In this document: positions 1,651-64,000 of the stretch, piece after piece | Layout of the letters: every line of letters begins with the position of its first letter | How positions within the stretch are numbered: position 1 is the first letter of the stretch | DNA from: a virus | Lineage: Duplodnaviria; Caudoviricetes | Reading direction: 5' to 3' (one strand) | Virus record (IMG/VR): IMGVR_UViG_3300047557_002530 | Length of the DNA: 64,000 nt | The notes under the pieces: generated by a model | Databases searched by the model: none | Seen by the model: the letters and a program-made list of their open reading frames with translations, nothing else | What the model was told of the DNA's origin: nothing | Position numbers and translations under genes: made by a program

Positions 1651-1916
1651 AACAATTCAACATTAACTCAACAGTTAAAGTTCGTCTCACAGAGTATGGT
1701 AAGGAACTACATAAGAATCAATGGAAAGAATTTTGGAGTTCTGTTGGTAAGTTAGATAAGCACCCATATAAACCACTAGAAACCGATGCTGATGGATATT
1801 GTGAGTTTATGATGTGGAACTTGATGAATAAGTTTGGTTCTTATATGATATTAGGATGTGAAGTTCCTTTTGAAACTACTATTCTTATTGATGAAAAAGA
1901 TTTAAAGGATGAATGA
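1647..1916 (+). CDS. hypothetical protein
   Basis: ATGA overlap; MKQFNINSTVKVRLTEYG. Confidence 0.75.
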   Translation: MKQFNINSTVKVRLTEYGKELHKNQWKEFWSSVGKLDKHPYKPLETDADGYCEFMMWNLMNKFGSYMILGCEVPFETTILIDEKDLKDE

Positions 1917-1922
1917 ATTCCT

Positions 1923-2031
1923 TATAAATAAAAATGTCTGTCGAAACTGCAATCTCTACGGACAAAGGATTAGGTGCTCTTTGGAGCACCTTTTCTGTTA
2001 TAAATAGTAATGCAGTTTCGACAAGATTACT
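1923..2031 (+). ncRNA. candidate sRNA and dual late-promoter cassette upstream of the GIY-YIG gene (copy 1)
   Basis: TATAAATA 1923-1930; stem 1935-1941/1958-1964; terminator hairpin 1973-1990 plus TTTT; TATAAATA 1999-2006; 1939-1951 is the exact reverse complement of 2011-2023. Confidence 0.65.
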
Positions 2032-2688
2032 ATGACTACTCATAGTCCAAGAATTTATACTTACAAAATTACCTTTGAAGAAGTTCCATATTACTATTAT
2101 GGAGTTCATAAGGAAAAGAAATATAATGAATATTATATGGGTTCTCCTTATACTCACAAATGGTGTTGGGAACTTTACACACCAAAGAAGCAGATACTTC
2201 AACTTTTTCACTTCACAGATGAAGGTTGGTTAGAAGCACAAGAAGTTGAGAAAAGATTAATCAAACCTTTTTATAATACAGATAAATGGTGCTTGAATGA
2301 AAATTGTGGAGGTAGATTTTCAATAGAACATCAAAGAAAATCGGGACAAAAAGGTGGTAAAATATCAAGAGAATTATTACTTGGAGCACATTCAATTCCA
2401 GGCAATCAAAAATATTGGTTACAAAAAAATAAAGAAGATAAAATTGGAATATTTTCATTATCACCAGAGGAATTGAGTAAATATGGAAAAATAGGTAGTG
2501 AAAAAGCAAGAGAGCAAAATGTTGGTATTTTTGCTATGACTAAAGAACAGAGAAGTGAAGCAGGTAAAAAATCAAATTCACAAAAATGGATGTGTCTTGA
2601 AACTGGGTATATAACAACATCTGGACCACTATCTTTATATCAAAATAAAAGAGGAATAGACATTACTAAACGAGTGAGAGTATCATAA
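2032..2688 (+). CDS. GIY-YIG (Seg-like) homing endonuclease
   Basis: RIYTYKITF...YYYYGVH...YMGS, downstream catalytic E and LNEN; basic repetitive C-terminus. Confidence 0.85.
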   Translation: MTTHSPRIYTYKITFEEVPYYYYGVHKEKKYNEYYMGSPYTHKWCWELYTPKKQILQLFHFTDEGWLEAQEVEKRLIKPFYNTDKWCLNENCGGRFSIEHQRKSGQKGGKISRELLLGAHSIPGNQKYWLQKNKEDKIGIFSLSPEELSKYGKIGSEKAREQNVGIFAMTKEQRSEAGKKSNSQKWMCLETGYITTSGPLSLYQNKRGIDITKRVRVS

Positions 2689-2746
2689 GGACACTTCACA
2701 AACAGGCACAAGGGCACTTGAAACAGAGTGCCTTTCGTTGTATAAT
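2689..2746 (+). promoter_or_regulatory. palindrome/-10 promoter element E1
   Basis: GGACAC-TTCACAAA-CAGGCA; TATAAT 52 bp downstream. Confidence 0.8.
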
Positions 2747-2769
2747 GACTTCATAACCACAAAGAACTG

Positions 2770-3303
2770 ATGATTGAACCAATAGGATACAAACTTAATC
2801 CAAAGAAACTCAAAAAAGCACCACAATATATTACTCCTTATTTGTTTCTTGGTGCTTTTTATTACACCGAAGATTATGAGTATTTTGATGTAATTAAACC
2901 TTATCTTGATATTCCAGAGAAACCTAAAACTCTGGAAGAAATCTCACAAGAGTTTGATGAGAAGATTGATAAACAGATTGAAGATGTAGAGTATAAGTTC
3001 GCACAACTCAAATACTATCAAGAGTATCAGTTTAGTAAAAAGATTACCAAGATTATTGAGGATATTGAGTATGCGAAAGAACACGGACAATTCCCAGTCA
3101 AACTCACAGTAGGTGATTTATGTTGTTCTAACGTTGGTATCAGCAGTACTGTAGATTGGAGTACAGAGTTTAGAATTGGTAAAGATGAGGTAGGATACTG
3201 GGACATCAAACCAAACATCAAAGTGTATCTGAAAAAGAAACCAAATCGTGTTGTGAGATACTTTACTAAATTGCTTCTGGACTTTACTTGGAAAGATGTA
3301 TGA
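2770..3303 (+). CDS. hypothetical protein
   Basis: First ORF after E1. Confidence 0.8.
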   Translation: MIEPIGYKLNPKKLKKAPQYITPYLFLGAFYYTEDYEYFDVIKPYLDIPEKPKTLEEISQEFDEKIDKQIEDVEYKFAQLKYYQEYQFSKKITKIIEDIEYAKEHGQFPVKLTVGDLCCSNVGISSTVDWSTEFRIGKDEVGYWDIKPNIKVYLKKKPNRVVRYFTKLLLDFTWKDV

Positions 3304-3593
3304 CTAATCCTCTCATAGAAAAATATAATGAACTCTACGGAAAGAAAGAAGAACCAAAACCAGATTATTATAAGGGTGAAAAGTCATACGCAGAAGAACT
3401 GGAAGAACTTCGGGATACTTCTACTATTCCTGTTAGTAAAATCAAATCTTATGACATTAATAGTGTGAATGTTTCTTTTCATCAAGTCGTAGAACAAGTC
3501 AAAAAAGGTGAGGCACAAGTATCCAGTATGAGTATGGAAATGGATATAATGTATGGAACAAAAATAACCTTTGAGGTTTATGTGGACACTTGA
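3300..3593 (+). CDS. hypothetical protein
   Basis: ATGA overlap; its last codons lie inside E2. Confidence 0.75.
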   Translation: MTNPLIEKYNELYGKKEEPKPDYYKGEKSYAEELEELRDTSTIPVSKIKSYDINSVNVSFHQVVEQVKKGEAQVSSMSMEMDIMYGTKITFEVYVDT

Positions 3594-3640
3594 AGAACTG
3601 GCACAGGAGCATCCCACAGGTGCTCCTTTTGCCTTATAAT
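3584..3640 (+). promoter_or_regulatory. promoter element E2
   Basis: GGACAC-TTGAAGAA-CTGGCA; TATAAT at +51. Confidence 0.85.
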
Positions 3641-3663
3641 ACTCTCATACACACAAAGGACTG

Positions 3664-3852
3664 ATGACTTCAAAAACCATATCAATTGGTGATTGGAAAA
3701 TTAAAACTTTGACTGAAACAGAAGTCAAAGATATTATTGCTATGCTTCGTCAGGCACAACAAGACAATCTTGATGATGAGTATTCTTATGATTACTTCAA
3801 AAAATTAGCATCAAAAATTCACCGAATGGGACTTGCTTTTCAATCTCTTTGA
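3664..3852 (+). CDS. hypothetical protein
   Basis: First ORF after E2. Confidence 0.7.
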   Translation: MTSKTISIGDWKIKTLTETEVKDIIAMLRQAQQDNLDDEYSYDYFKKLASKIHRMGLAFQSL

Positions 3853-3883
3853 TATAATACTCTCATACACACAGAAACCTGTT

Positions 3884-4273
3884 ATGAAACCCTTTGACTA
3901 CTACTCCAAATCTCAAACTGCTTATCCCAACAAAAAGGATTACATCACTTATTATGTTTATGATAAGGGTAAAGTTCTTTGGTCTGGTCCTACTTGGGAA
4001 AAGGATAAAACAGAACTAAAAGAAGAATATCCTAATGCTGTTATTCAGGAAGTTTTGGATAATGAAAGATACAAATCACACCAACTTCAATATACAGATG
4101 AAAAGCATAAACTTCACGAAGAGTTTGTGAATGACCTCTTTGAGAACTTTAATGTAACTAATAATCCTAAAAGGCAAAAGGCATTTGACCTTGCTTGGGA
4201 AAAAGGACACGCAAATGGTCTTGAAGAAGTGTATAATGAGTTTTATGACCTTGTAGAACTTATTCAGGATTGA
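3884..4273 (+). CDS. hypothetical protein
   Basis: Preceded by TATAAT (3853) and the same actctcatacac leader as E2 and E3. Confidence 0.8.
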   Translation: MKPFDYYSKSQTAYPNKKDYITYYVYDKGKVLWSGPTWEKDKTELKEEYPNAVIQEVLDNERYKSHQLQYTDEKHKLHEEFVNDLFENFNVTNNPKRQKAFDLAWEKGHANGLEEVYNEFYDLVELIQD

Positions 4274-4330
4274 GGACACTTTCTAAACTGGCACAGGGAT
4301 GCTCCAAGTGTCCCTGTGATGTCTTATAAT
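4274..4330 (+). promoter_or_regulatory. promoter element E3
   Basis: GGACAC-TTTCTAAA-CTGGCA; TATAAT at +51. Confidence 0.85.
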
Positions 4331-4355
4331 ACTCTCATACACAAAGGAACTCCAA

Positions 4356-5740
4356 ATGGCAATTGACACCAGCACCTGCATCAACATCCTCCCTGATGAG
4401 GAGTGGTATTATTCTGTTGAAGACCAGAATATTGCGACCAGTTTGGGTGGTTGTACGATTTCTTATTGGCAAGACCAAAAACGACATACTCACATTACGA
4501 TGGAACCTGAAGAAGCACTTGCCGTTGCTGATGCCATCTACAAACTCTTTAAGAAGAACTGAAATGACTCGCAATCTGATTCTTCACAGGACAAAAATCG
4601 TTGTCTATGTGAGTATTACTCTTGTTCTACTAGCAATGGATTCAATTTGGAAGGGTATTCGTTGGTTCTTTGAGTATCAAGTTTATGCCTTCACAGGTCT
4701 GTTTTATGAACCTTATCAGAACGCAAGGTATTATTGTCGCAAGTATCTGAACCCTAAAACTTTGAATTGGAATAACCGATGACTTACACAATCACCAAAG
4801 AAATCAAAATCCACCACGATGAATATGGTTGGTGTTTTGAGTTCTCACCTGATGAGTATGGAACTGTAAGTGTGCGTGATGGTAATGGACCAGAATACCA
4901 AACCATTCACATTCCTCAAGATTGTATTCAATCATTTATTGATGTTTTAGAACAATACAAATGAACCTCACCAAAGAAGATTATCTCAATTCTCTAAAGA
5001 GTTGGGTTAAATACACTCCTTGGGAATGGATAAGTAATTATTGCGACGAACAAGGTCGTTGCTGGTTTGAAATTATGGGAGAATGGAAACTCATTAAACC
5101 AACAACTGCTTACAACACTATCACTTGTCTTCCTTTTTACATCAATCCAAACTGAAATGAAACTCTACCAGCACGACAAACAAACTTATCAGGATGGTGA
5201 AGTATCTCACACCTGGCAGTTTGGTATTATCAACGACATATCATTACTTTGGGTGAATTTTGAAAGCCCTGGTGGTGTCATTCATTCTTCTGGTGGTATC
5301 AACCTCTTGTTTTCTTTCTTTGGTAATTCTCTTATGAGTGTAGATTTTCAACAACGAAGGTTTTGTTTAGCATTTGCTTTTATTACTGAATACGATGACT
5401 GACGAGCAACAAGAACTTTTAACCTCCTATCAAAAAGAAGTTGAGAAGTGTTTCAAAATCGCACAGAAACTTGATACTCTCAATCCCGAACTTGTTGGTG
5501 CTTTTACTGGAACTCCAAGTGAAAGAATTGAACGACAACTTTATGCTCTTAGTATTCTAAATGACTACTGAAGAAATCCTTGAACTTGTAAAAGAACACT
5601 TTGAAGAAGGTGGTATTCAGGATGATGGTAGTTGCTCCGAGTATTATGGAGACCCTGATGCTTTTGTGAAGTTTGCCCAATTAATGTATGATAAAGGAAG
5701 AGATGATGAGGCAGAACTGTATGTTGATGAGAACTATTGA
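4356..5740 (+). other. run of coupled small hypothetical ORFs (4356-4562, 4564-4782, 4779-4964, 4961-5155, 5157-5402, 5395-5571, 5561-5740)
   Basis: Abutting or overlapping start and stop codons downstream of E3. Confidence 0.7.
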
Positions 5741-5742
5741 TT

Positions 5743-5967
5743 ATGACTAACCAACAAATCGCAAAAGAAGTTCTTTATGCTTATATGGATGTGGAGAGGG
5801 ATTTATCACAACCTAAAATCCTCATTCATACACTCAAACAACTACGCAAACTTATGACTGGTAATCCTCTCAACTGGGAAGATGAACAGGGTATGATGTA
5901 TGAATTTGGTTGGACTGATTGCCTCAAACAGATTGATGCTGTATGTGATGAATTGGAGAACCTATGA
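5743..5967 (+). CDS. hypothetical protein
   Basis: Coupled ORF. Confidence 0.7.
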   Translation: MTNQQIAKEVLYAYMDVERDLSQPKILIHTLKQLRKLMTGNPLNWEDEQGMMYEFGWTDCLKQIDAVCDELENL

Positions 5968-6533
5968 CTGGTTGTAAATATTGGGATGCGGGTTGGTGTT
6001 ATGCTCCTGATGATGTAGAAACATCTGCCAGTTCTCAAAGTGCTTGTTTTGATTATGATTTTTGTCCTTATTTGAAATCACAAATGTCCCAACCAGTACA
6101 ATACGAAACTCCTATGACTAAAAGTGAAGAAGAAATTGAAAAAGTAAAAGCACAAATCAAAGTGCTTGAAAAGAAACTCTCATTCCTTGAAGAACTGGAA
6201 AAAACAAAATCACCTTACGAAGAAGGATACAAGAAAGTTTTTGGTTATTATCCTGTGACTGATGTTGGTGATGCTTATTGGGAATATTTCCAAAAAGGAT
6301 ATGAACAAGCAGAGAAAGATTATAAGGTAGGAGAGTATCAAGAACCAGAAAAAGAACCAGTGTCTCTTTACAAACGATTTGTGGATGAGGGTGCTTATGG
6401 TATGACATCTTTTGAGAATGCTCTTAAAATTGTAAAAGACTTTCTTATGGATGAGGGAGTTATAGAAGACGAATCTGGAGAATACATTACATTTACTCTA
6501 CAAAAATCTCTATTGGAGGTTCCTAATGACTGA
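5964..6533 (+). CDS. mosaic hypothetical protein with a Cys-rich N-terminus and a coiled coil
   Basis: CKYWDAGWC...C...C N-terminus; KAQIKVLEKKL block shared with 773-1201. Confidence 0.8.
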   Translation: MTGCKYWDAGWCYAPDDVETSASSQSACFDYDFCPYLKSQMSQPVQYETPMTKSEEEIEKVKAQIKVLEKKLSFLEELEKTKSPYEEGYKKVFGYYPVTDVGDAYWEYFQKGYEQAEKDYKVGEYQEPEKEPVSLYKRFVDEGAYGMTSFENALKIVKDFLMDEGVIEDESGEYITFTLQKSLLEVPND

Positions 6534-6801
6534 TAAAATCACACTGACACTCACACTGGACCCTTGTAATGAAGTGATTGAAGACCTAAAAAATAGACTT
6601 AAAGAACCTAAAATGACTACCAAACTTGTTGATGATTATGTCAATTTCATTATGGATAGTATGTCTCAACAAATCAAAGAAGAAACTCTTTATGAGTATT
6701 TGGTAAATGAGTATAAGGATTTGAGTGAGAAAGAACTTACTCAACAAATCCTTGAGAATTATGGTGATGAATGGTTTGAATGGGTAAAGGAGAACAACTG
6801 A
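6526..6801 (+). CDS. hypothetical protein
   Basis: N-terminus MTDKITLTLTLD is near-identical to the next gene. Confidence 0.75.
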   Translation: MTDKITLTLTLDPCNEVIEDLKNRLKEPKMTTKLVDDYVNFIMDSMSQQIKEETLYEYLVNEYKDLSEKELTQQILENYGDEWFEWVKENN

Positions 6802-6802
6802 A

Positions 6803-7492
6803 ATGACTGATAAAATTACACTGGAACTTACACTTGACGAGTTGAAAGAACTTGATAAAAACCTCTACTATTGTGAGGAAACTTGGAGTATCTTTGATAA
6901 AATCAAAGTTGCTTTTCCACAACCACAAATGAACCTTCAACAAGAAGGTGATTATGTTTCAGTTTCTTATAATAATACGACATACTATCGTCTTATGGGT
7001 GAAACTACTTACACTTGGTATATCAAAGTTACTCAACCTGTTCCTAATCTTGTGATGGTTGATGATGCCGAAACTGAACGATTGTTGGATGGTCTTTACT
7101 ACAATCATATTGTGGTGAAGAAAGAAACCGCACAAGAACGAGGAGAACGACTTCATAATGAAATGGAAGAAACTATCAAAATTCACGATGGTTATGGTAT
7201 AGTAGATTACCAACCAACTCCACAAACACCAGAACAAGTTGCTGATGGATTGAAAGAAGCATTTAGAGAAGCAGTCAAGCAAGGTGTGGTTTCATCTACC
7301 AAATCAAAAACACTCACAGACCTCATTTATGACTGGTGGGCAGATGTATTCACAACTCATAGTGATTGGGATATGGAAACTTCTATTGAGAATTTGGTAG
7401 ATGAAATTAGTTTGTGGTTGCCGACAGAACACGATACTAACAGTTACAAGTGGAATCAGTGTATCCGAATGATTAGGGAGAAACTACGATGA
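6803..7492 (+). CDS. mosaic hypothetical protein
   Basis: Contains QPTPQTPEQV and YYRL...WY blocks also seen in 773-1201. Confidence 0.8.
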   Translation: MTDKITLELTLDELKELDKNLYYCEETWSIFDKIKVAFPQPQMNLQQEGDYVSVSYNNTTYYRLMGETTYTWYIKVTQPVPNLVMVDDAETERLLDGLYYNHIVVKKETAQERGERLHNEMEETIKIHDGYGIVDYQPTPQTPEQVADGLKEAFREAVKQGVVSSTKSKTLTDLIYDWWADVFTTHSDWDMETSIENLVDEISLWLPTEHDTNSYKWNQCIRMIREKLR

Positions 7493-7671
7493 CTGACCGC
7501 AACTTCAAACAAGAACTTGTACACTCCTGTTACTACGACATGGAGAATGGATACGACAGCGAAACAATTGATTATGATTGTCTGATTGGTGTTATCACTG
7601 AATTGTGTGATAGAATAGAGCAACTGGAAAAGGACAACGAACTCCTGAAATCTTATGCTTGGGAACCATGA
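7489..7671 (+). CDS. hypothetical protein
   Basis: Coupled ORF. Confidence 0.7.
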   Translation: MTDRNFKQELVHSCYYDMENGYDSETIDYDCLIGVITELCDRIEQLEKDNELLKSYAWEP

Positions 7672-8435
7672 CTGAACACAATCTACCAGAAAAGGATGAT
7701 GCTCCCTGGTTGAACACACGATATGATGGATTTATGACACACGAAGAAATGCTTGAAGAAGCAGCACGACGAGAAGCAATCGTAGCAAAAGTATCTGAAG
7801 AAGACTATCAGAAAGTCCAAAAAGAAGTAGCAAACAAAAAAGCACTAGAAGCAGTAAAAAAACTTTATGCTGAAAATGGCGATGCTCTAAAAGAACTTGC
7901 TGATATTGAAAAGGAGGAACGAATGGATGCTGTAAGAACTGCCATTGTTGGTATTGATAAGTATTCCGATGCTCTTAAAGAACTTTCTGAAACAGAAAAA
8001 GTGGAACTGCGAGCAGAACTTGAAAAGAAAAAGAAGGAAAACTTCCAACTGGTTTCTGATGCTTGTATGAAAGAATATGAGCAGAAGTATAATCGTGATG
8101 TATTCCCAGTAGATGAATACTGGGTGTATATGCTTTCTGAATATGGGGCAACGGGGGAAGGAAATACTGTTTGTATTATGATGACACAGGCAATTCCATA
8201 TGGCGCTGACTTTAGTGAAGAGAATAGGTATGTTCCTATCAACTCACAGCAATATCGTGCTGTGAGAGCATTCCACGAGCAGTTTGGCACTTGGCATCTT
8301 CATGGTCTCAGATTTCTCAGTAAAGAAGATTTCTTCACTGAATGTGCTTATTACATTCCTCCTGTGATGATGAAACTTTCTAACAAAAATTGCTTTAAAG
8401 AGTTTCATACCAAAGTTCACTACAACTTCTCATAG
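7668..8435 (+). CDS. hypothetical protein
   Basis: Long ORF with a coiled-coil N-half; stop touches E4. Confidence 0.8.
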   Translation: MTEHNLPEKDDAPWLNTRYDGFMTHEEMLEEAARREAIVAKVSEEDYQKVQKEVANKKALEAVKKLYAENGDALKELADIEKEERMDAVRTAIVGIDKYSDALKELSETEKVELRAELEKKKKENFQLVSDACMKEYEQKYNRDVFPVDEYWVYMLSEYGATGEGNTVCIMMTQAIPYGADFSEENRYVPINSQQYRAVRAFHEQFGTWHLHGLRFLSKEDFFTECAYYIPPVMMKLSNKNCFKEFHTKVHYNFS

Positions 8436-8491
8436 GACACTTGGTGAAGTGGTACGGAGGAACTGCCTTAGGTTCTTGAGCGTGCTATAAT
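8435..8491 (+). promoter_or_regulatory. promoter element E4
   Basis: GGACAC-TTGGTGAA-GTGGTA; TATAAT at +51. Confidence 0.8.
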
Positions 8492-8513
8492 ACTCTTATG
8501 AAAAAGAAACCCG

Positions 8514-9270
8514 ATGAGCACTCTTGATGTAATCAAGTTCTTCACTCCATATGCAGAAAAAAATGAAAAAGGGGAAGTAGTTAGTATGACTTTCCCTTGG
8601 GGTTTTGTTATTGTTCTAATCCTTGTTACTTTATCCTGATGACTTATTCACTCAATCAAGAAGCAAAAGCATTCTCTTACACCCGTGAGGAACTCTTTGA
8701 GTGTATCACCAAGATTGTGGCACATCCACACAAAACCATCACAGAACACGACCAATCCCGTGCTCTTGCTATTATGATAGTTTTTGACGACTACTTCAGC
8801 AATTATACTCAAAGTGATAATAATGGTGGACATTGTGTTTATGAATGTGATGCTATGGATTTGACTGATTTTGTACGGTTCAAACTTTGTATTGATGATT
8901 ATGATGCTGTTGATGTTGATGAGGTTTTGAAATAAAACCTATATAAAAACGAAAACAAAGGAGAAAAAATGAAATTAGGAGATGTAATGCTCGCTGCAAT
9001 TTGTGGTCTTGTAATTGTAGTTTCAGTTGCTCATATTGAACCACATTTTTCAACTTCTAATGTAGAACAGAAAGCAAAATGAGTAAGTGGGTAAAGAATC
9101 CAGATGAAATTGTACTGGAGAATCTCAAAATGTTTCACTTAGAGAGTATGGATTCTAATGCTCTCTGGGTTGGTTGTTATACACAAGACAATAAAATCTA
9201 TCATCTAAATATCGTAACAAAAGATAATCAGTTGAATTATTTTTGGAGTGACGAAACTTGTGATAAATAA
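8514..9270 (+). other. small ORFs 8514-8639 (membrane), 8639-8935, 8969-9082 (membrane), 9079-9270
   Basis: Coupled ORFs downstream of E4; two have hydrophobic stretches. Confidence 0.65.
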
Positions 9271-9375
9271 TTGAACCTATTGAGAGTGCAATTTCATAGG
9301 TAAGATTGGGTGCTTTCGGGCACCTTTTCTATTATAAAGTATTATAAATACCTATGCACTCTCAATAGAATAAAA
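9263..9375 (+). ncRNA. candidate sRNA and dual late-promoter cassette upstream of the HNH-NUMOD3 gene (copy 2)
   Basis: ATAAATA 9263-9269; stem 9275-9280/9296-9301; TTCG-loop terminator 9309-9324 plus TTTT; TATAAATA 9343-9350; 9277-9290 is the exact reverse complement of 9355-9368. Confidence 0.65.
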
Positions 9376-10341
9376 ATGAACTATCTGAAGGTTTATTGTA
9401 ACCTCATTAGAAAAGCAGAGAATAGAACTTTATCTGAAGATTACATAGAAAAGCATCATACATTCCCAAAAAGTATCTTTGGAAAGAATAATAGAGTTGT
9501 TATGCTCACTGCAAGAGAGCATTACATCGCACATTTGCTATTAGAAAAAATTTGTATCGTAAGATATGGAATTGATGATAAAAGAACAAAGAAAATGAAT
9601 CTTGCTTGTTTTTTAATGAGAAGTCGTAGTGAAAAATACAATTCTCATTTATATGAACAAGTAAGAAAGAGATATAGTGAAAATATGAAGGAAAGAATGA
9701 AAGGTGAAAATAATCCAAGTTATGGTGTTCCTTGTAGTGAAGAGAGGAAACAAAAAATAAGAGAAAAACACTTGGGAAGAAAAGCATCTCAAGAAACAAA
9801 AAATAAAATGAGTATAACCAGAAAAGGAAGAAAGTTTAGAAGTTATATTAAAAATGGGAAAAGGTTTGGAAATTACTTAAAAATATATGATTTGCAGTTT
9901 AGAGAAATGTTTATTGAAATAGTTAAAACTTCTCATACTAAAACTGAAATTGTAAAAAGGTTAGAAAATAAAATAAGTTATAAATGTGTTGTTGGTTGGA
10001 TAAAGGAATTGAATTTAGATACTATTCATTTTACTGGAAATCTTGGACTAAAACATACAGATGAAGCAAAGGAAAATATAAAATTAGCAAAACTTGGCGA
10101 GAAAAATCCATTTTATGGAAAAACTCATACTGATGAAGTTAAATCCAAGATGAGTGAAGATAGAACAGGAGAAAAAAATGCTTTTTATGGTAAAACACAT
10201 AACCAAGAAACCAGGCAAAAAATTGGAGAAAAAAATAGTGAAAGTATGAAAGGTATGTTGTGGTGGAATGATGGACAAACTCAAAAAAGAAGTAGAGAAT
10301 GTCCTGGTGATGATTGGATAAGAGGTAGGTTAAAAAAATAA
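9376..10341 (+). CDS. HNH homing endonuclease with NUMOD3 repeats
   Basis: EKHHTFPKS...LTAREHYIAH; several NPFYGKTHTDE-type repeats; ATG start at 9376 rather than the track's 9310. Confidence 0.88.
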   Translation: MNYLKVYCNLIRKAENRTLSEDYIEKHHTFPKSIFGKNNRVVMLTAREHYIAHLLLEKICIVRYGIDDKRTKKMNLACFLMRSRSEKYNSHLYEQVRKRYSENMKERMKGENNPSYGVPCSEERKQKIREKHLGRKASQETKNKMSITRKGRKFRSYIKNGKRFGNYLKIYDLQFREMFIEIVKTSHTKTEIVKRLENKISYKCVVGWIKELNLDTIHFTGNLGLKHTDEAKENIKLAKLGEKNPFYGKTHTDEVKSKMSEDRTGEKNAFYGKTHNQETRQKIGEKNSESMKGMLWWNDGQTQKRSRECPGDDWIRGRLKK

Positions 10342-10345
10342 CAAA

Positions 10346-10403
10346 AGACACTTGAATAACTGGCACAGGACATCTCACACTCTCACCACTTCTGTGCTAT
10401 AAT
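10346..10403 (+). promoter_or_regulatory. promoter element E5
   Basis: AGACAC-TTGAATAA-CTGGCA; TATAAT at +52. Confidence 0.8.
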
Positions 10404-10426: not shown

Positions 10427-11919
10427 ATGAAACAATGGATTGAAAACGCACTCTGGTCTTGGAAATGTTGTATTCATTCTCGATTTGTAGAGTATAATGA
10501 CAACATAGATCGTTGTGCTTTCTTTGAGGAGTTAAACTATGGTTGGGTTCAAATGCAAGATGAATACATAATGTCTCAACCAAACTTTGACCCTTATAAT
10601 CTATCTGGTAGAGACCCTAGATACTCTTATGTGATGAGGAAAAAATGAACTTTCCTGTGTGGTTAAACAAATGGATAATATCCAACAAATACATAAAATA
10701 TACAATTTTATGGTATTGGTATCGTCTTATCAATCATTCTAATTGGAGAATGGATGATCATCAACGATATGCTGATTTCTGGTTGAATCTCAATCATGGT
10801 TGGGACCACATGAATTATGTTCACAAGTTCGAAGAATTCTGGGGTAAAGGTTCTTATCCACCTGAAAAAACTATAATATCCAAAGAAGCATATGATAAAC
10901 TGGTGGAAAAACTCAACGAACCACCACAATATAATGAAAGGATTGCAAGAGTATTAACCAAAAAAGCCCCTTGGGATGATTGAAATGAAACCTGATGATA
11001 AAGAAGCACTTTTAGACTTTATAAGTGGTTCTAGATTTGTTTTTGGATTTGTAGTATTTGTATCGGTTTTAGCATTTATTGCGAATGCTTCTGCGAACTG
11101 GTTAGACGCACAACCAACACCACAGAACCAAAGATTTGAGGTGGTGGATGAGTACAAGGGGTGTGATGTGATACAATATAATCCTGATGGTTCTGCACGA
11201 TATTCTTATTTCCTTCACTGTAAATGAACGAGAAATCTAAAATCTACTACAATATCTGGTGTTGCGCTTATCAACGTAGAGGACTATATAAAGGAACCGA
11301 CAGGGAACACAGAGAGCACGAAACTGTGCGTATGTGCCTTGATATGAAAGACGTGAAGTTCTATCATTTTGATACAGAAAAACCGCATTATCTCTAATGA
11401 TATTCTCCAGACCAATTTTAGGAACTAATACCAAGAAAACTAAACTGTCTTGGATTGAATACTACTGGAACTCTTGTATTGTTCAGGGATGGTATAATTG
11501 TTGGTATGCCTTTAAGAATTGGTCCGACTTGATGGGTAATCACTATCAAGACTATGCACTTCTCAAGACTGATGATCCATTAGAACAATGTATTCTTTAT
11601 TTCTGGGATAGTCTTGAAGATGAGATTTATCCCAAACACTTCTTGGATAGTCTTCTTCAAATGGCACACGACATTGATACTGGTAAAGAAAAAGTTATTC
11701 CTCTTGATGAAAATTTCTTTGATAGAATGAAAGACCTTGTAAAAGATGTGGAGTTGAATGATGAAGACCTTACCTGATAAGTTTCAGTTGAGGATTATGT
11801 GGACTGTTGCTACATCTTCTGCGATTGAAACTAGACAACCTGCATATGAAATCTTTGCTAAATTGCTGTATAATGACTTGAGTGATGAGGAGTTTCCTGT
11901 TAAACTTGGAGAAAAATAA
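10427..11919 (+). other. coupled small ORFs (10427-10648, 10645-10983, 10976-11227 membrane, 11224-11397, 11397-11777, 11761-11919)
   Basis: Overlapping starts and stops downstream of E5. Confidence 0.7.
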
Positions 11920-17790: not shown

Positions 17791-18009
17791 ATGGAAGTCC
17801 TTGAGTTCACTGATTCTTCTGCTATTGCAAAGATTCAGTTCGATGATGAACAAGGTCAAGTCGGAGTAGCATACACTTCTTCGCCCGACAATTTTTATGT
17901 CTTTGGTTGCGAAGACTTGGACTATGTTCGACTTCACATCAAAACTGTCGAAAGTGTAGGTAAGTTTATTGCTGAACTAAAGAAAGAAGGAACATTGCAA
18001 AAGATTTAA
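17791..18009 (+). CDS. KTSC-like domain protein
   Basis: SSAIAKIQFD...FYVF...SVGKFI. Confidence 0.55.
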   Translation: MEVLEFTDSSAIAKIQFDDEQGQVGVAYTSSPDNFYVFGCEDLDYVRLHIKTVESVGKFIAELKKEGTLQKI

Positions 18010-18179
18010 TGGAAGGATTTATAGTTGGGGATGGTACTTATTGTGCTGTCCCTTTTGGAAAACAACTGATGATTATACATAATGGTCAACAGTTAAAAGT
18101 CTGTAGAACAGAGGCATCTGCAAGAAAATATATTGATGCACTAAAAAAAGGAAAATCAGTGGCAAAACTTCCTTTGTGA
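18009..18179 (+). CDS. small hypothetical protein
   Basis: Coupled; stop inside E7. Confidence 0.6.
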   Translation: MEGFIVGDGTYCAVPFGKQLMIIHNGQQLKVCRTEASARKYIDALKKGKSVAKLPL

Positions 18180-18233
18180 CACTTGTTTTTCTGGCACAAC
18201 TCACTCCAATTTTGGTGGGTTGTGTCCTATACT
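18177..18233 (+). promoter_or_regulatory. promoter element E7
   Basis: TGACAC-TTGTTTTT-CTGGCA; TATACT at +51. Confidence 0.75.
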
Positions 18234-18255
18234 GAGTACATTCAACAAACTTCAA

Positions 18256-18672
18256 ATGTCAACCCGAGCACGAATTGGTCTTGAACTTAAAAATGGTTCT
18301 ATTCTCTCTGTGTACCACCACTGGGATGGTTATCCTGAGTGGTTGGGTCGTATTCTGAAGACTCACTACAACACACGTCAGAAATCTGCAGAACTGATTG
18401 ATGGTGGTGATATGAGTTCTTGTTGGACTGAAGATCGCTGGAATAGTGAGACCAAAGTACAAGAATATGGTCCTCAATACTATTCCCAGCGTGGAGATGA
18501 TTGCCCTCCTCGTCTTGATGCTGACCTTGTAGAATATCTGCTCCCTGAGAATGGTGAAGAATATCATTATCTCTTTCGTAATGGTGAGTGGGTGTGCTAC
18601 AATATGCACTGTTATGTAGAAAGCAAACTCCCTGAAATTGTTGAAATCCCCTCTGCTGCTCTTGCTGTTTGA
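18256..18672 (+). CDS. conserved phage hypothetical protein
   Basis: MSTRARIG...SVYHHWDGYPEWLG motif. Confidence 0.8.
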   Translation: MSTRARIGLELKNGSILSVYHHWDGYPEWLGRILKTHYNTRQKSAELIDGGDMSSCWTEDRWNSETKVQEYGPQYYSQRGDDCPPRLDADLVEYLLPENGEEYHYLFRNGEWVCYNMHCYVESKLPEIVEIPSAALAV

Positions 18673-18675
18673 TCT

Positions 18676-18861
18676 ATGAAAACTTCTACTGCTCTTGGTA
18701 TTGGATTTGGCATCCTTGTGATTGCCGTTGCCAGTGTATTCCTACAAGCGTGGGTACTCGGCATTATTCTGTCTTGGTTTAATGTGACCTTGACATTTTG
18801 GCAGAACTTCCTTATTATTCTGCTTGCTAACTCTTTCCGCACTAACGTATCTTCTAAGTAA
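18676..18861 (+). CDS. small membrane protein
   Basis: Two hydrophobic segments. Confidence 0.7.
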   Translation: MKTSTALGIGFGILVIAVASVFLQAWVLGIILSWFNVTLTFWQNFLIILLANSFRTNVSSK

Positions 18862-48800: not shown

Positions 48801-51800
48801 CAAGAATTTTTGCTATTTCAAATCAAACTATTAGATTTGATCTATCGGATAGTTCATTATCATATACTAAAGGATCTCTTTCTTATCCAGCATTTGATTT
48901 TAAACTATATACAAATTCAGATTTTACTGAAGAATTTAGCAAAACAACAAATTCAACGAAGTTTGATGTCATTAAGACTGGTAGAATAGGAGTAACTTCA
49001 ACTTCTTCCATTACTTTAACAACAGAAAACCTTGATTTTGATTTATATTATAACTTAGTCCCTGTAGACTTAACCGATAATTTTGTTTCTAAAAAAGAAA
49101 TAATTGTAGATGATGATAATGTCAACTCAAATAACAGGTTAATTTTATCACAAAGTTCATATTATGGATTCCACAACATAGTTGGAGTGGGACAGACAAC
49201 ATTTACTTTCAATATTCTGAATAATCCAGAAAGTTCATCATACACAAGTTCTGATGGAAATTTCCAATATTACACTGATTCCAAAAATACAACTGGAGAA
49301 ATTAAATCTGTTGAAATAAAATCTCCAGGAAGATTTTATAATACTTCTCCCGGTATAACATCTGTATTTTCTACTAATGGACGTGGTGCTATTTTAGACC
49401 CAATTACAGTTTCTATAGGAAAAGTTAATAGAGTAGAAATAGATGATATTGGTTTTGATTATCCTGCAGATGTAACTTTGCGTCCAACTTCCAAGTTGCC
49501 CCAAATATTAAAAGTAAATCCACTTTCAATATTTAAGAGTGTTGGAGTTTCTTCAGTTGGAATTGATTACAGCATTTCTCCAGATCTTGTTGTAATTGAT
49601 TCTTTTACAAATCAGGTTGTTAGTGATGCTGATTTGAAGTATGATATAAATTCCAAGACTGTGGAAATTGTAAAAAATACTGAAGGAATCTATAACACAA
49701 AACCAACAATAATTCCAATCAACAACTCCAATGGAATTCCTATTAAGAATATTACATTCAATAGTACAAATAAAAATGTAACCGTCGAACTAGATGTTAA
49801 TTATAGCTTTGGTCAAATTTTCCCCTTTAATGTAGGAGATAAAGTTTTAATTGAAAATGCTAATGTTGGCACAGCATCAACCGCAAAAGGTTATAGTTCT
49901 AAAAATTATAACTATGCTCTATTTACTTTAACCTCGGCGAATCCACAATATGGGGGATCTGGGGCAAATATTGTATATAACCTTTCAAATTATCTATCCT
50001 CTTCAGAATCTCCCGGAACCTTTGATTCGGAAAATTCTGCGGCTATTGTTGTACCAGAAAAGTATTTCCCAATATTCAATCCTGTTTTAGAAAAATACAA
50101 ATTCTTTAAGGGCGAAAAGGCAGTTAGTGGATCTTCAAGTGGAATTGTATTAAATTGGAATGAATATACAGAGGAATTGAAGTTATCTTCGGGCGACACG
50201 TTTGAAGTGAATTCTATCATTCAAGGCGAAACTTCAAAAGCAAAGGGTTCGATTCGTACAGTTGACGATTTTGATGCAGTATATAACGTTGGAGCATCGT
50301 CAATTGTGAAAAAGGGGTGGAATTCTGAAAGTGGATTTTTGAATAACCAATTTCAAGTTACCTCTGATAATAATTACTACCAAAATTTCTCATACTCAAT
50401 AAAGTCTAAAGTTGATTATGAAACTTGGAATGAATCGATAGGAAATCTTAACCATACTACTGGATTTAAAAAATTTAGTGATTTAGTTATAGAATCAATT
50501 GATTCTGCTTTTGTGGGAATATCAACATCTCAAAATGATGGAGATTTTTCTGGATTAGCAGATTTAATAACTGAAATTGATCTAAACTGCACTAATGATT
50601 TCGATCTTGCTAGGGAAAAAACATTAAGTATTGATTCTGATTATTATTCGAAAGAAATTATTTTAAATTCTATTTCTTTGCAGGATGAATTCCAATCAAT
50701 AGGAAACAGAGTTCTTACAATAGATGATATTAGCGAACAATTCTCCAATGTCCCATCAGAACAAAATTATTCTAATGTAGATTCATTTAGATTATCTGAT
50801 TTTAGATCTAAGAAATATATAACCTATGTGAGAGACAAGAGATTTACTGGTCTCAGACAAATTTATCTTGTTTCTTTAATGCATGATGGATTGGAAGGAT
50901 ACTTGAATCAATATGCTAGATCAGAAACTAGTGTTGATTTGGGGTCATTTGATTTCTCTATTTTTGGGTCTGAAGGTACATTAGAATTCTATCCACTAAG
51001 TTATCTTTATAGCAACTATGATATTAGTGTAATATCGTACGGAATTAGAGATACTTCTTCTGGTATTGGAAGCACTTCTTTTGGTAGTTTAATTGATGTA
51101 AGATCATCGACAGCAACAGTTCCCGCAGGAACTACCACACAGACAAATATTGTTGGTATCGGATCTACTTATTTGGCATCAAAAGTCTTGGTTCAGTTCT
51201 CTTCTACAAACGGTACATATTTCCAGTTTGATGAAATAACTTTATTGAATGATGGTACTGATGTAAGTATTTTAGAATATGGTCGCTTATCAAACTCAAG
51301 TAGAGTCAGATATGTCGGAGAAGGAATAGGAACTTATACCGCTTATATTTCTGGATCAAATGTCAATTTAGATTTTACGCCAAATGTTGGATTGGGAACT
51401 ACCTATGTTATTAATACACTTAGAGTTTCAGTTGCTAGTACAAATGTAGGAATTAGTACTTCCTCATTATCATTTGACAATTGCGAAGTAAGGTCCGGAT
51501 ACGTATCTATTTCTTCGTCGCCAACACCTACTCAAATTGGAATAACAACATATTCTAAAGAATATGGATCGGCTTATTATATTGCAGTTGTTAAAGACAG
51601 TACAAATAATCAATATCAAGTTTCTGAACTAGTAGTTGTTGATGATGAAACTGAAGCATATGTATCTGAATTTGGTGTTGTAGAAACGTCTTCCGGACTA
51701 GGAACTTTTGGAGTCGGTGTTAGTTCTATAACAGGAACAACATTAACATTTACCCCCAATCCAAATATTTCGGCAGAGGTTAAAATCTATCAAAATTCAA

Positions 51801-54800
51801 TGAAAGTTGTTAGTACAGCAAATACTTTACAATCATATGATTTCACAAATTCCAACATAGAAACATCTTATGGAGAATTTGAAGGGACTTATAATTCTAT
51901 TAAGAGATCATTTGATTTAAAACATAGACAAATACCAATCTTCCAAAGAGTATTTGATGCTTCAAATACAACAACGGTAAATGTTACAAACAATTCAGTA
52001 AGAATTCCAAAACATTTTTACGTAACTGGAGAAGAACTTATTTATAGCCAAGGTAATGGCAGTCCTATTGGCATTGCAACAACAACTATTACTGGAATTG
52101 GATCAACTGATTTATTGCCTTCATCAGTATTCGTAATTAAAGTAAATGATCTTGATATTAGATTGGCAGCAAGTGCGGAAAAGGCACTAAAAGCAATTCC
52201 AGAACCTCTTACAATTACCTCAGTTGGAATAGGAACAACACACTCATTCACTGCCAAAAAACAAAATACAAAATGTTTGGTAACCATTGACAACTTTATT
52301 CAATCTCCTATTGTCTCCACATCAACAACTACAACTCTAGCGAAAAATGTTGCCTTCAATGTAGTCGATTTAACTCTTTCGGGAATAACCTCTATTTTTG
52401 GTGGCGATTTACTGAAGATTAACGATGAGATAGTAAAGGTAAATACTGTTGGTTATGGATCAACCAATGCTTTATTGGTTGATCGAGGTTGGATGGGAAC
52501 AAATGCAGAGAATCACTCTATTGGGTCAACTGTTACTAAGATTACTGGTAACTATAATATCATTAATAACACAATTCACTTTGTAGAAGCACCATATGGA
52601 AATTCACCAATTGGAACTATAACAAATAGACCCGATGATAGGGATTACACCGGCATTACTACTCGTTCTACATTTGCAGGAAGAGTCTTTCTGAGATCAG
52701 GAATAGAAGATGATATAAATGAACCATATAGTAAGAATTATATTTTTGATGGATTATCAGAACAGTTTACTGGAATAAACACAGAATTTATTCTAAAATC
52801 TTCCAATACAAATATTACTGGAATTTCCACAGGCGGAATGGTTCTCTTGATAAACAATGTTTTCCAAGAACCACAGAGACTTGGAACCATTAATATTAAT
52901 GGAGATTATAAATTAAGAGAAAATGCGGGCATAACCACCTTAGCATTTACTGGAACTATATCGTCAACTGCGTATGATATTAATAATGCAAGTGTTCCCA
53001 GGGGAGGAGTTATTGTTTCAGTAGCATCTACTCAAGGATTTGGTTATCAACCATTAATTTCAGCAGGGGGAACTTCAATAGTTTCCGTTGCAGGTACTAT
53101 TTCTGCAATTAGTGTTGGATATTCTGGATCCGGTTATAGAGGACACGAAAATTATGAAATAATTGCGGAAACTTCTACAAATATTAGTTCAGGAAGCACA
53201 ATTATTCCAATAAACAACCAAAATGGAGTTCTCAACAAATTACAATATTCAACTTCAAATACAATAGGAATAGGATCAATATTCCAAAATGTTCCTATTG
53301 TGGGCGTTGGAAACACTTATATTTTGATTGGTTCAGCAAGTACTTCAAGTCAATCTATTGTCTCTGGAACTTCGGCATTAATAAGTCTGAATTCTCCGAC
53401 TGTTGGATTAGTCGATGTTGGTGTAAAAACTGCCAGCAATGGAATTTTAAATTATCAGTTTATTGGTTTCTCCACTATTTCGTCAGGGCGCATTTCGAAC
53501 AATATAACCATCACAAATCCAGGATCTGGTTATACGTCGTCAAATCCACCAATTGTCGTATTTGAATCTCCACGTAGTTATGATAATATTCCATTAATTT
53601 ACTCTCCAGGGTCTTCTGGAATTGGAACTCAGTCTACGGTCAATATTGTTGTTGGGCAGGGATCTAGTATAGTTGATTTTGAAATTAGAAACCTAGGTTA
53701 TGCATATAAAGTTTCTGAAGTTCTTACCGTTCCTACTGGAGGATTGACAGGAATTCCAACAGACTCTTCAAAACCATTTAGTAGATTTGAATTGACTATC
53801 GACCAAGTATTTGCAGATCTTTTCTCAGGATGGTCTGTTGGGGACTTCCAAGTTATTGATAAAATCGAAAACTTATTCAATGGCGTAAGAAGAAACTTCC
53901 CAATTAAAATAGATGGAGTACAAACATCAATTCGAGCAAGATTTGGTTCAAATATTGACGTACAATCCATATTATTAATATTCATCAATGATATTTTACA
54001 AGTTCCCGGATCTGGATATACTTTCACTGGAGGAAGTACATTTACTTTCTCAGAACCACCAAAAGAAGGGGATACTTGTAAGATATTATTCTATAAGGGA
54101 ACTGGATCGGTAGATGTTGTCTTTAATGATGTTTTAGAAACTATCAAATCTGGAGATACTGTGAGATTAAACAGTGATATTTTATCACAAAAAGAAGATG
54201 AAAGACTTGTTACCGATATCGTTTCTTCTGATATTGTTCAAACCAATCCATATAATGGATATGGATTGTCAATTGACGAAACTCTTTCTAGGCCTTTGAT
54301 CTGGTGTAGGCAAACTGAAGATAAAATTATTAGTGGTCAAGAAATAGGAAAAAATAGAGAAATATATGAACCTCTTATTCAACCAACAACTAACATAATT
54401 AACAATGTAGGAACTGCATCTACTGAAATTTTTGTTGAAAGCGTAAAGATTTTCTTTGATGACAATAGAGAAAATTCAACAACTCCATTCAAAACAAAAA
54501 TTTTAATAACATCTCAAGATGTTATAGTTGGTGCCTCGGCAACTGCAGTAGTTTCTACAGCAGGAACTATTTCCTTATTGAGTCTTATTAATGGTGGATC
54601 AGGATTTACAACTAATCCAATAGTTGTTATTGGAACTCCCGTAGGTGTTGGATCAACTTCTACTGCAACAGCATCCATAACCTCAGGAATTGTAACTTCT
54701 CTGACGATTACATCTCCAGGATTTGGATATACAACCAAAACTCCCCCACAAGTTCTGATTCAATATCCATCTCTTAAATCAGAAAGAATTGAAGATGTTT

Positions 54801-62620: not shown

Positions 62621-62675
62621 AACGTTATTAATAAATATATTATATTGGATCCAATCAGAAAGGTAAAAAAATAAA

Positions 62676-64000
62676 ATGAAAATAATAGATCCTTTGGCTC
62701 AATCTTTTTATGTTGAACCGGAAAGTGGCATTTTTGCCACTTCCGTTGATTTATATTTTTATTCAAGAGATCCAGAACTTCCAGTAACTATTCAGTTAAG
62801 ACCCATGCAATTGGGTCTTCCAACTAGTGAGGTTTATCCATTTAGTGAAGTGGTAATTGACCCAAAGGATATTCAAATTTCCGAAGATGCATCTTTACCA
62901 ACTAGAGTTACTTTTGAATCTCCAGTCTATCTTGCAGGAAAACAGTTTCATGCATTAGCAATTTTATCAAACTCTAGCGTTTATAACGTATGGATTTCAA
63001 GATTAACTGAGATTGATGTCAGTACTACTGCTCTCGCAGAGCAAGAGCAAGTTTTAGTTTCTAAACAACCATTAAGTGGTTCATTATTTAAGTCGCAAAA
63101 TGGATCTACCTGGACTCCGAGCCAATTTGAAGATTTAAAATTTAAGTTAAACAGAGCAAACTTTGTAGGAAGTGGAAATATAAACTTTTATAATCCAAAT
63201 TTAAGTCTGGGTAACAATCAAGTAGCTACATTAGTAAGAGACTCCTTAGAGGTAACTTCTAAAAAAGTTAAAGTTGGAATTGGAACTACAATTGCAACAT
63301 CAAATCTTCCCACTTTGGGAAATACAATCATCCAACAAAATAGCAATGCTACAGGCAATTTTGTTGGATATGCGGGATCTGCATTCGGAACTCTAGGAAT
63401 TATTAATGCGGGAATTGGATATACGCCTTCTTCAGGATCTTTTGTATTTAATAATGTTGTACTGAATACAATAACTGGAGATGGTAGAGATGCAAGAGCA
63501 AATATTACTATAACAAATGGAGTTGCAGTAGCTGCAACAATCTCAAATGGTGGAACTGGATACTCCACAGGAGACGTATTGGGAATATCAACGATCGGTG
63601 CACAAAATCTTGGTAGAAACTTAAGACTGTCTGTTTCAGAAGTTTCTGGAGTAAATCAACTAATTATAGATCAAGTTCAAGGAGAATATATTACTGGTGT
63701 CGGAAACACTGTAAGATATGTGAATAATGCAGGAGTTTCTACAGATTTAAATGGCACTGGCGGAAATGTTATCATTCCTATTGGAGGAATAGAAACAATA
63801 TCTGATGGATTGCATATCAAGGTTTACCACAAAAATCATGGAATGAATTCTTCCCAGAATTTGGTAACAATAAGTAATGCAATATCCGATTTGAAACCAA
63901 CTAAACTTTTTAGTAATTATTCATCAACTTCAACTGACAGTATTCCCGTAGAAAGTATTTCTATCGCTAACTTTGATACTTTTGAGAATGTTTCTGTTGC
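62676..64000 (+). CDS. VrlC/DUF4815-like protein, C-terminal part as a separate gene; runs off the window and is absent from the ORF track
   Basis: MKIIDPLAQSFYV...TSVDLYF; GSLFKSQNGSTWTPSQFEDLKF; own ATAAATA at 62631. Confidence 0.85.
   Translation, partial: MKIIDPLAQSFYVEPESGIFATSVDLYFYSRDPELPVTIQLRPMQLGLPTSEVYPFSEVVIDPKDIQISEDASLPTRVTFESPVYLAGKQFHALAILSNSSVYNVWISRLTEIDVSTTALAEQEQVLVSKQPLSGSLFKSQNGSTWTPSQFEDLKFKLNRANFVGSGNINFYNPNLSLGNNQVATLVRDSLEVTSKKVKVGIGTTIATSNLPTLGNTIIQQNSNATGNFVGYAGSAFGTLGIINAGIGYTPSSGSFVFNNVVLNTITGDGRDARANITITNGVAVAATISNGGTGYSTGDVLGISTIGAQNLGRNLRLSVSEVSGVNQLIIDQVQGEYITGVGNTVRYVNNAGVSTDLNGTGGNVIIPIGGIETISDGLHIKVYHKNHGMNSSQNLVTISNAISDLKPTKLFSNYSSTSTDSIPVESISIANFDTFENVSV

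Follow-up and report, generated by a model that had tools for sequence, protein, structure and literature searches.

A portable leader that probably acts as a translational lock precedes homing endonuclease genes of freshwater T4-like cyanophages

A leader of about 115 nt that precedes a homing endonuclease gene in a T4-like cyanophage from fresh water (positions 9262-9375) is best explained as the 5' control region of a self-contained mobile homing-endonuclease unit, which extends from a late-promoter-like box (P1) to about position 10400. This cassette is probably a cis-acting translational lock of the type found in phage T4, with a late promoter nested inside it, packaged together with a terminator as a portable module. 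The case is built on the anatomy of the sequence, on covariation among numerous relatives that points to structure in the sense-strand RNA, on the co-movement of the leader with nuclease genes and on the thermodynamics of folding.

The window analysed here comprises the initial 64,000 nucleotides of a 156-kb virus contig from IMG/VR, in which gp6- and gp8-type baseplate genes were found. The cassette follows a series of tightly packed small ORFs on the + strand and consists, in the 5' to 3' order, of P1, a stem-loop (SL1), a terminator-like hairpin (T1), a second late promoter (P2) and a leader that contains the match to the upstream arm. When the sequence was re-read, all the parts named in the original prediction were found at the bases assigned to them, and the start codon of the nuclease gene, which it had placed at 9377, was corrected to the ATG at 9376-9378. 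The features of the cassette and of the unit that it heads are as follows:

9079-9270, + strand: upstream ORF of 63 aa, the last two codons and TAA stop of which (GAT AAA TAA, 9262-9270) come from the cassette
9262-9269, + strand: P1, late-promoter-like box GATAAATA (ATAAATA at 9263-9269), also the 5' edge of the mobile unit
9275-9301, + strand: SL1, a 6-bp stem (ACCTAT at 9275-9280 with ATAGGT at 9296-9301) with a 15-nt loop
9277-9290, + strand: 5' arm (the 'seed' of the original prediction), made up of the final 4 nt of the 5' strand of SL1 and 10 nt of the loop
9308-9328, + strand: T1, predicted intrinsic-terminator hairpin, stem 9309-9314 with 9319-9324, UUCG loop, U4 tract at 9325-9328
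9343-9350, + strand: P2, consensus late promoter TATAAATA, located between the two arms, predicted +1 at 9356
9355-9368, + strand: 3' arm, the extreme 5' end of the predicted P2 transcript, ending 7 nt before the AUG
9376-10341, + strand: HNH-NUMOD3 homing endonuclease gene, 321 aa (Pfam NUMOD3, 1.8e-30; phrog_655 'homing endonuclease', 1.5e-37)
10347-10403, + strand: 3' end module, GACACTTGA...AACTGG, hairpin 10363-10368 with 10392-10397, then TGcTATAAT at 10395-10403

The two arms are exact reverse complements over 14 nt, and a second helix of 8 bp (9295-9302 with 9349-9356) would stack on the 14-bp helix. The P1 box overlaps the TAA stop (9268-9270) of the upstream ORF. Late promoters of T4 occupy positions -13 to -6 relative to the start (PMC1524935); under this rule, the predicted +1 of P1 is the first base of the SL1 stem, and the predicted +1 of P2 is the second base of the 3' arm. 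The 3' arm covers positions -21 to -8 relative to the AUG, which itself lies outside the helix, and no canonical Shine-Dalgarno sequence is present. A contig assembled from the RNA library of a relative spans 9208-9524; as a sign of transcription into the cassette from upstream it is weak, with DNA carry-over possible as its source.

The cassette is present in exactly two copies in the 156-kb genome. The other copy, copy 1, is composed of the following parts:

1923 to about 2031-2034, + strand: copy 1, followed by a seg-like (GIY-YIG-like) nuclease gene of 218 aa at 2032-2688
1923-1930, + strand: P1 of copy 1
1936-1963, + strand: SL1 of copy 1
1939-1951 with 2011-2023, + strand: the two arms of copy 1
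1973 onward, + strand: T1 of copy 1
1999-2006, + strand: P2 of copy 1
2032, + strand: first base of the ATG of the nuclease gene

The order and the spacing of the parts are the same in both copies and the letters of the stems and arms differ, which bears out the proposal that the leader at 9262-9375 is a second copy of one cassette with its own matched arms. Among the 51 ATAAATA sites of the 156-kb genome (49 of them on the coding strand), only those of the two cassettes are flanked by a complementary arm of at least 13 nt. The fold of 9255-9400 in cis has a predicted energy of -44.5 kcal/mol (z = -5.8), and that of copy 1 with both arms included reaches z = -8.4; leaders that start at the predicted P2 start are unstructured in both copies (z about 0). 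A search of 1800-9500 on both strands with the Rfam covariance models gave no match at E <= 1, which places the structure outside the curated families.

Relatives were collected from IMG/VR with a degenerate pattern that combined the letters common to both copies around the T1 hairpin with the P2 box. At least 118 loci were obtained, with 117 complete cassettes and, among those listed, 92 unique sequences. A pattern-independent set consists of 80 loci picked by similarity of the HNH protein alone; as a query, the single protein retrieved few relatives and an alignment retrieved the 80. In 68 of these loci a cassette ends exactly at the start of the ORF, and the remaining ones have a different leader (10 loci), a late promoter only (one locus) or neither (one locus). 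With a covariance model built from the cassettes, further copies were detected in two cultured phages, the freshwater phage S-SRM01 (six) and Synechococcus phage B3 (three). The locus had no megablast match among GenBank phages, and the more sensitive blastn found only S-SRM01, B3 and B23.

Covariation in this family is extensive. Within the 92 unique cassettes, the arms change on both sides at 12 of the 14 pairs, with 97.2% of the cells paired and up to five pair types per position, and when one arm is slid by 1-3 columns as a control, pairing falls to 33-54%. The SL1 stem changes on both sides at four of its six pairs (94% of the cells paired), including pairs that belong to SL1 only and lie outside the long helix (GC:59/AU:18/GU:9 and UA:66/CG:23). 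The set made of protein-selected loci and cultured phages was aligned by a covariance model, which biases the alignment towards the structure. In this set, which the search pattern does not constrain, compensatory changes on both sides occur at every one of the 21 pairs, the seven of the T1 stem among them, and 98.3% of the cells are paired, compared to 31-53% in the slide control. In the rows shown the T1 stem is followed by a T-run, which is sometimes interrupted (for example, in locus L137). The natural covariation that had been proposed from the two copies of one genome is thus real and large, in the 92 unique relatives as well as in the protein-selected set.

The complementarity of the long arms might be accidental, or a remnant of a duplication, next to an ordinary terminator and promoter, given that the DNA is AT-rich with many short repeats and that the count of TATAAATA in the window is not above that in shuffled sequences. 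The probability of this explanation is negligible, considering that an arm of 13 nt was reached at 1 of 3000 random positions, and the compensatory changes at nearly all pairs in more than 90 independent sequences already refute it. A leader peptide encoded across the cassette was likewise rejected: copy 1 is open from the ATG at 1934 to the ATGA of the nuclease gene, but any frame is open in just three of the 92 cassettes.

The same data bear on the level at which the arms function. Promoter-flanking inverted repeats could in principle bind protein, and I-TevI uses an operator to repress the late promoter of its own gene (PMC2988022, section 10). The repeat might function in DNA, for instance by forming a cruciform, by serving in recombination or homing, or as an operator for the nuclease. 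This we consider very improbable. The arms contain many G-U pairs (GU:45 at one position, for instance), which on the other strand or in DNA would be A-C mismatches; this points to structure in the sense-strand RNA and fits only such RNA. Moreover, the arms are hypervariable (46 distinct 3'-arm 14-mers in 92 cassettes) and are shared by unrelated classes of nucleases, so that there is no conserved site for a protein, and the register of the arm is fixed to the predicted start of transcription: the 3' arm begins exactly 4 nt past TATAAATA in 68 of the 81 cassettes with an exact arm of at least 9 nt.

The preferred interpretation, a translational lock acting in cis, implies the following course of events. 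RNA initiated upstream, at the early-type small genes, would mostly stop at T1. The RNA that reads through would carry both arms and form the long-range helix of 14 + 8 bp, which would bury the short A/U-rich leader over its initial 13-14 nt (-21 to -8) and prevent ribosome loading; occlusion of the ribosome site by a helix that ends 7 nt upstream of the AUG is assumed here from the footprint of the 30S subunit. Late in infection, the gp55-type promoter P2 between the arms would initiate at the second base of the 3' arm. From the 4-nt register and the -13 to -6 rule, the P2 transcript is expected to start inside the 3' arm and to lack the 5' arm, and with its leader unstructured, this RNA would be translated. 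The promoter activity, the start sites, termination and the effect on translation are all predicted from the sequence.

A second type of leader, found in the 10 protein-selected HNH loci (of 80) with a different arrangement, has a nested hairpin that encloses an arm of 10 bp (for example, ATGTCTGGGG with CCCCAGACAT); a late promoter follows directly after the hairpin and is itself followed by the complementary leader. There is no conserved P1 in these leaders and most of them lack a U-tract. Without P1, the pairing can act only in cis, which supports the cis role of the cassette. In the loci L192, L194, L205, L208, L214, L215 and L171, this structure precedes the HNH start by about 110 nt (locus positions of about 1090-1200), with an outer stem, GTGGGC/GCCCAC, around an inner hairpin that holds the 10-nt arm in its loop.

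Some of the observations do not follow from a lock that works only in cis. With a terminator between its arms, the lock is partly redundant, which counts against it. Furthermore, the cis-only model does not explain the invariant TAAATA of P1 with its fixed 5-nt spacing to SL1, the covariation of SL1 despite the competition of this stem with the long helix, the conservation of the unpaired loop segment AAUCUCU, or the covariation of T1. The column entropy is 1.76 bits in the upstream flank, 0 bits in the TAAATA of P1, about 1.1-1.6 bits in the arm core, about 0.3 bits in the loop segment and 0.3-0.6 bits in the leader preceding the AUG.

These features could be accounted for if P1, SL1 and T1 together were a late gene for a small RNA that acts in trans, an addition that is compatible with the lock; we regard the existence of such an RNA as a substantial possibility, though somewhat less likely than its absence. 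The predicted RNA would be about 54 nt long in copy 2 (9275 to about 9328) and 59 nt in copy 1, or about 54-60 nt overall. From the SL1 loop it would pair with the 5' end of the P2 mRNA, unzip the stem and either block ribosome loading or trigger cleavage, a scheme to which we give the same guarded credence. The TAAATA core of P1, which was absent from the search pattern, is invariant in all 92 unique cassettes and in 55 of 55 members of the protein-selected and cultured-phage set. All P1 boxes are either NATAAATA, which is the late-promoter motif of cyanophages (PMC2984593), or NCTAAATA, the late-promoter form of phage Aeh1 (PMC1524935), so that both forms are known late promoters, and the 5-nt spacing puts the +1 of P1 on the first base of SL1, with the same geometry as in P2. 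The box could owe its invariance merely to its role as the stop codon of the upstream gene, which it provides in 45 of 81 loci, a point that weakens the case for a promoter. It is, however, equally invariant in the 36 of 81 loci where the upstream ORF ends before the box, which indicates that it is more than a stop codon. The covariation of the SL1-only pairs points to selection on a short terminated RNA, and the covariation of T1 and the T-run behind it fit such a transcript.

Energetically, the pairing in trans would be specific. Co-folding of the two copies gave a ddG of -14.7 and -16.4 kcal/mol for the cognate combinations compared to about -2.3 kcal/mol for the crossed ones, and over all the cassettes the duplex averages -22.8 for cognate and -11.5 for non-cognate pairs. 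In accord with the expectation that binding opens the stem, cognate pairing is predicted to open SL1 and to spare T1.

Several findings speak against the small RNA. The second type of leader works without P1, and no solo P1-SL1-T1 module was detected when 129 T1-like hairpins from 1.3 Mb of related DNA were inspected, so that an 'immunity' function of solo modules against the nucleases of co-infecting phages was discarded. Cassettes that reside in the same genome do not exceed random pairs in orthogonality, and two cassettes of one contig share their arm sequence. Selection for orthogonality of co-resident arms was accordingly rejected, the crossed energies being those of random pairs, and this comparison does not discriminate between the models. 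With its full anatomy of a late RNA gene, the 5' half of the cassette is probably an add-on and not the core of the mechanism. If the small RNA exists, its unit and its target lie in tandem on the + strand, with complementarity that stems from the inverted repeat rather than from transcription of the opposite strand. Small RNA and mRNA would then be made from like promoters, and the nuclease could be damped in a dosage-compensated manner as phage genomes multiply. This would amount to a copy-number-compensating brake on homing endonucleases, similar to RNA-OUT, with dozens of mutually specific arm variants, and would give homing endonucleases their first known small-RNA regulator.

With regard to the genes downstream, the claim that the two nucleases of the genome belong to different superfamilies agrees with our searches. 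The HNH-NUMOD3 protein behind copy 2 (phrog_655) has H27, H28, N38, H49 and H53 invariant in 27 homologues, and tblastn matches it to mob-type genes of T4-like phages. The nuclease behind copy 1 matches the seg-like phrog_314 and appears GIY-YIG-like by this match and its N-terminal motif, and sequence searches against Pfam and PDB showed no significant match for it. Across the family, an ORF of at least 60 codons lies behind 86 of the 92 unique cassettes, and the other six precede truncated ORFs or ORFs cut by the end of the locus. The ORFs of at least 60 codons fall into five N-terminal classes, one HNH and four GIY-YIG-like, the latter including one canonical GIY-YIG class. Matches to PHROG homing-endonuclease families were obtained for representatives of every class except the fourth (MELKEYH), whose representative matched none.

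Eight arm sequences are common to more than one class of nucleases, which indicates that leader and nuclease have been reshuffled, presumably via recombination in the conserved leader. The original prediction that the cassette moves, or is recruited, independently of the nuclease domain is supported to the extent that five classes share the cassette and eight arms occur in more than one class, and fails in that the cassette never travels without a nuclease gene; 'independently' here is recombination at the conserved leader and not separate mobility. In five cases (L025:4594-4701, L027:4884-4976, L006, L058 and L061), the cassette is intact, with perfect arms, in front of a nuclease ORF that has been cut to 6-43 codons, which suggests that the control module outlives the nuclease frame. 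The cassette at L027:4884-4976 stands for six identical loci, and in L025 the similarity to the HNH protein of the window runs on to residue 320.

The mobile unit has defined edges. In independent insertion sites, homology to the window starts at 9261-9264, that is, at the first bases of P1, and everything 5' of the P1 box is unrelated between sites. On the 3' side, homology with other insertions runs to about 10369-10376, and in L012 it continues past the HNH stop to about 10369. An empty site is available in L121 and L122, where the orthologue of the upstream ORF ends in ...ETC-TGA and is directly followed by the ATG of the next gene, an orthologue of the window ORF 10645; L025 has the same insertion site as the window, filled. 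Occurrence of the cassette at the empty site without a nuclease gene would have contradicted the original prediction; both loci lack the cassette as well as the nuclease, and the cassette, P1 included, thus travels with the nuclease.

Of 80 nuclease genes with a cassette in front, 34 have the 3' module directly after the stop codon. In its conserved form, represented in the window and in L009, L012, L017, L019, L024, L033 and L038, it consists of GACACTT...AACTGG, with a GC-rich hairpin and a T-run, followed by TATAAT. The hairpin often holds TTGAAA at a distance of 17 nt from TATAAT (TTGAAA-N17-TATAAT), which suggests a terminator that overlaps a sigma70-type promoter; the latter would restart transcription of the downstream genes. 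In the module of the window the hairpin is weak, yet there is an extended -10 element (TGcTATAAT).

Locks with a nested late promoter are known from the T4 family for genes e, soc, I-TevI, I-TevII, I-TevIII, segB and mobE of Aeh1; for the homing endonucleases, the lock has been shown in I-TevI and Aeh1 mobE and inferred in I-TevII, I-TevIII and segB (PMC2988022, section 12; PMC3014915, section 29). The cassette resembles these systems in that a nuclease gene or a late gene is placed behind transcription units of the same strand that are expressed earlier, in a hairpin that would form on long transcripts only (its hiding of the initiation region being a prediction for the cassette), in a TATAAATA-type promoter inside the hairpin from which late RNA would be made without the 5' arm, and in the control of both HNH and GIY-YIG homing endonucleases. 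It differs from them in several respects: the 'loop' of the lock is about 64 nt long and contains a covarying intrinsic terminator; the 5' arm resides in a covarying hairpin of its own, which follows a second late-promoter box that is invariant; the 3' arm, at the very start of the late mRNA, stops short of the AUG, and there is no clear Shine-Dalgarno sequence; and one conserved portable leader serves at least five nuclease classes with at least 46 arm variants.

For the putative small RNA, the closest analogy is the RNA-OUT/RNA-IN system of IS10 (Tn10), in which a small stem-loop antisense RNA limits the transposase through pairing of its loop with the 5' end of the mRNA. In both cases a mobile element would limit its own enzyme, the loop of an RNA would zip along one strand of the stem and cover the initiation region, and the effect would scale with copy number. 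In contrast to RNA-OUT, which comes from the opposite strand, the putative RNA of the cassette is encoded on the same strand, upstream and in tandem, through an inverted repeat. Type I toxin-antitoxin systems with an adjacent antitoxin RNA, such as TisB/IstR-1 and Zor/Orz, are bacterial, usually divergent and driven by host promoters. Like the cassette, they combine a short adjacent RNA gene with about 14-20 nt of complementarity to the 5' UTR of a potentially harmful gene, whereas the cassette is a tandem of phage late promoters that works also as a structure in cis. Among cyanophages, CfrI of S-PM2, an antisense RNA of about 225 nt, links psbA to the homing endonuclease F-CphI (PMC2984593; PMC12197685). 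It is a true antisense transcript that overlaps genes, and the cassette has no likeness to it in sequence or architecture. CfrI was the only case found in the literature on non-coding RNAs tied to cyanophage homing endonucleases, and a 2025 review of phage small RNAs names it alone in connection with a cyanophage homing endonuclease. Neither of two reviews on T4 mobile elements and post-transcriptional control contains a portable leader with a terminator and two promoters.

Homing endonucleases must fit into the timed gene programme of the phage without harming it, a problem to which the T4 solution has been worked out gene by gene. The cassette is a standard portable part of about 115 nt that travels with at least two nuclease superfamilies (HNH and GIY-YIG-like), in an element that would be insulated at both ends, and comes with at least 46 matched arm pairs in which promoters, terminator and spacing are kept. 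The family therefore offers a rich natural data set on covariation, and its arms could serve as a ready library of specific RNA-RNA pairs for the engineering of cyanobacteria or phages. In our best reading, the control itself is a variation on the known lock of the T4 type, and the question of the small RNA is accessible to experiment: the cassette offers a concrete candidate case in which control of selfish nucleases by a small RNA can be tested, and the six copies in the cultured phage S-SRM01 make such a test feasible.

The S-SRM01 genome (MW015081.1), with its six cassettes near 17.95, 48.43, 51.24, 55.95, 62.40 and 192.41 kb, provides additional observations on the annotation and placement of the units. 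Some of the GenBank CDS starts (51291-51992, 192466-193167 and 62515-63273) fall inside a cassette, which suggests that these ORFs have been extended upstream of the likely ATG, and one cassette-fronted gene annotated as 'translation initiation factor 2' is probably a mis-annotated NUMOD-type nuclease. Another cassette-nuclease unit (17946-18703) is located between a gene for a gp59-like helicase loader/DUF1825 protein and the gp32 gene for the single-strand-binding protein, a position that recalls segG beside gene 32 in T4.

Small ORFs around the cassette-nuclease units are variably placed. The empty site in L121 lacks the 73-aa ORF that follows the HNH unit in the window (10427-10648), and a homologue of this ORF is found directly upstream of another cassette (L034:9638-9890). 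Finally, outside the window, the same genome (G000:C1) contains the boxes AATAAATA-GTAAT-G at 100439 and GTTAAATA-GTAAT-G at 100537, which share an extended 'NTAAT-G' initiation context with P2 of the cassette and may be relics or further uses of the P2 promoter form.
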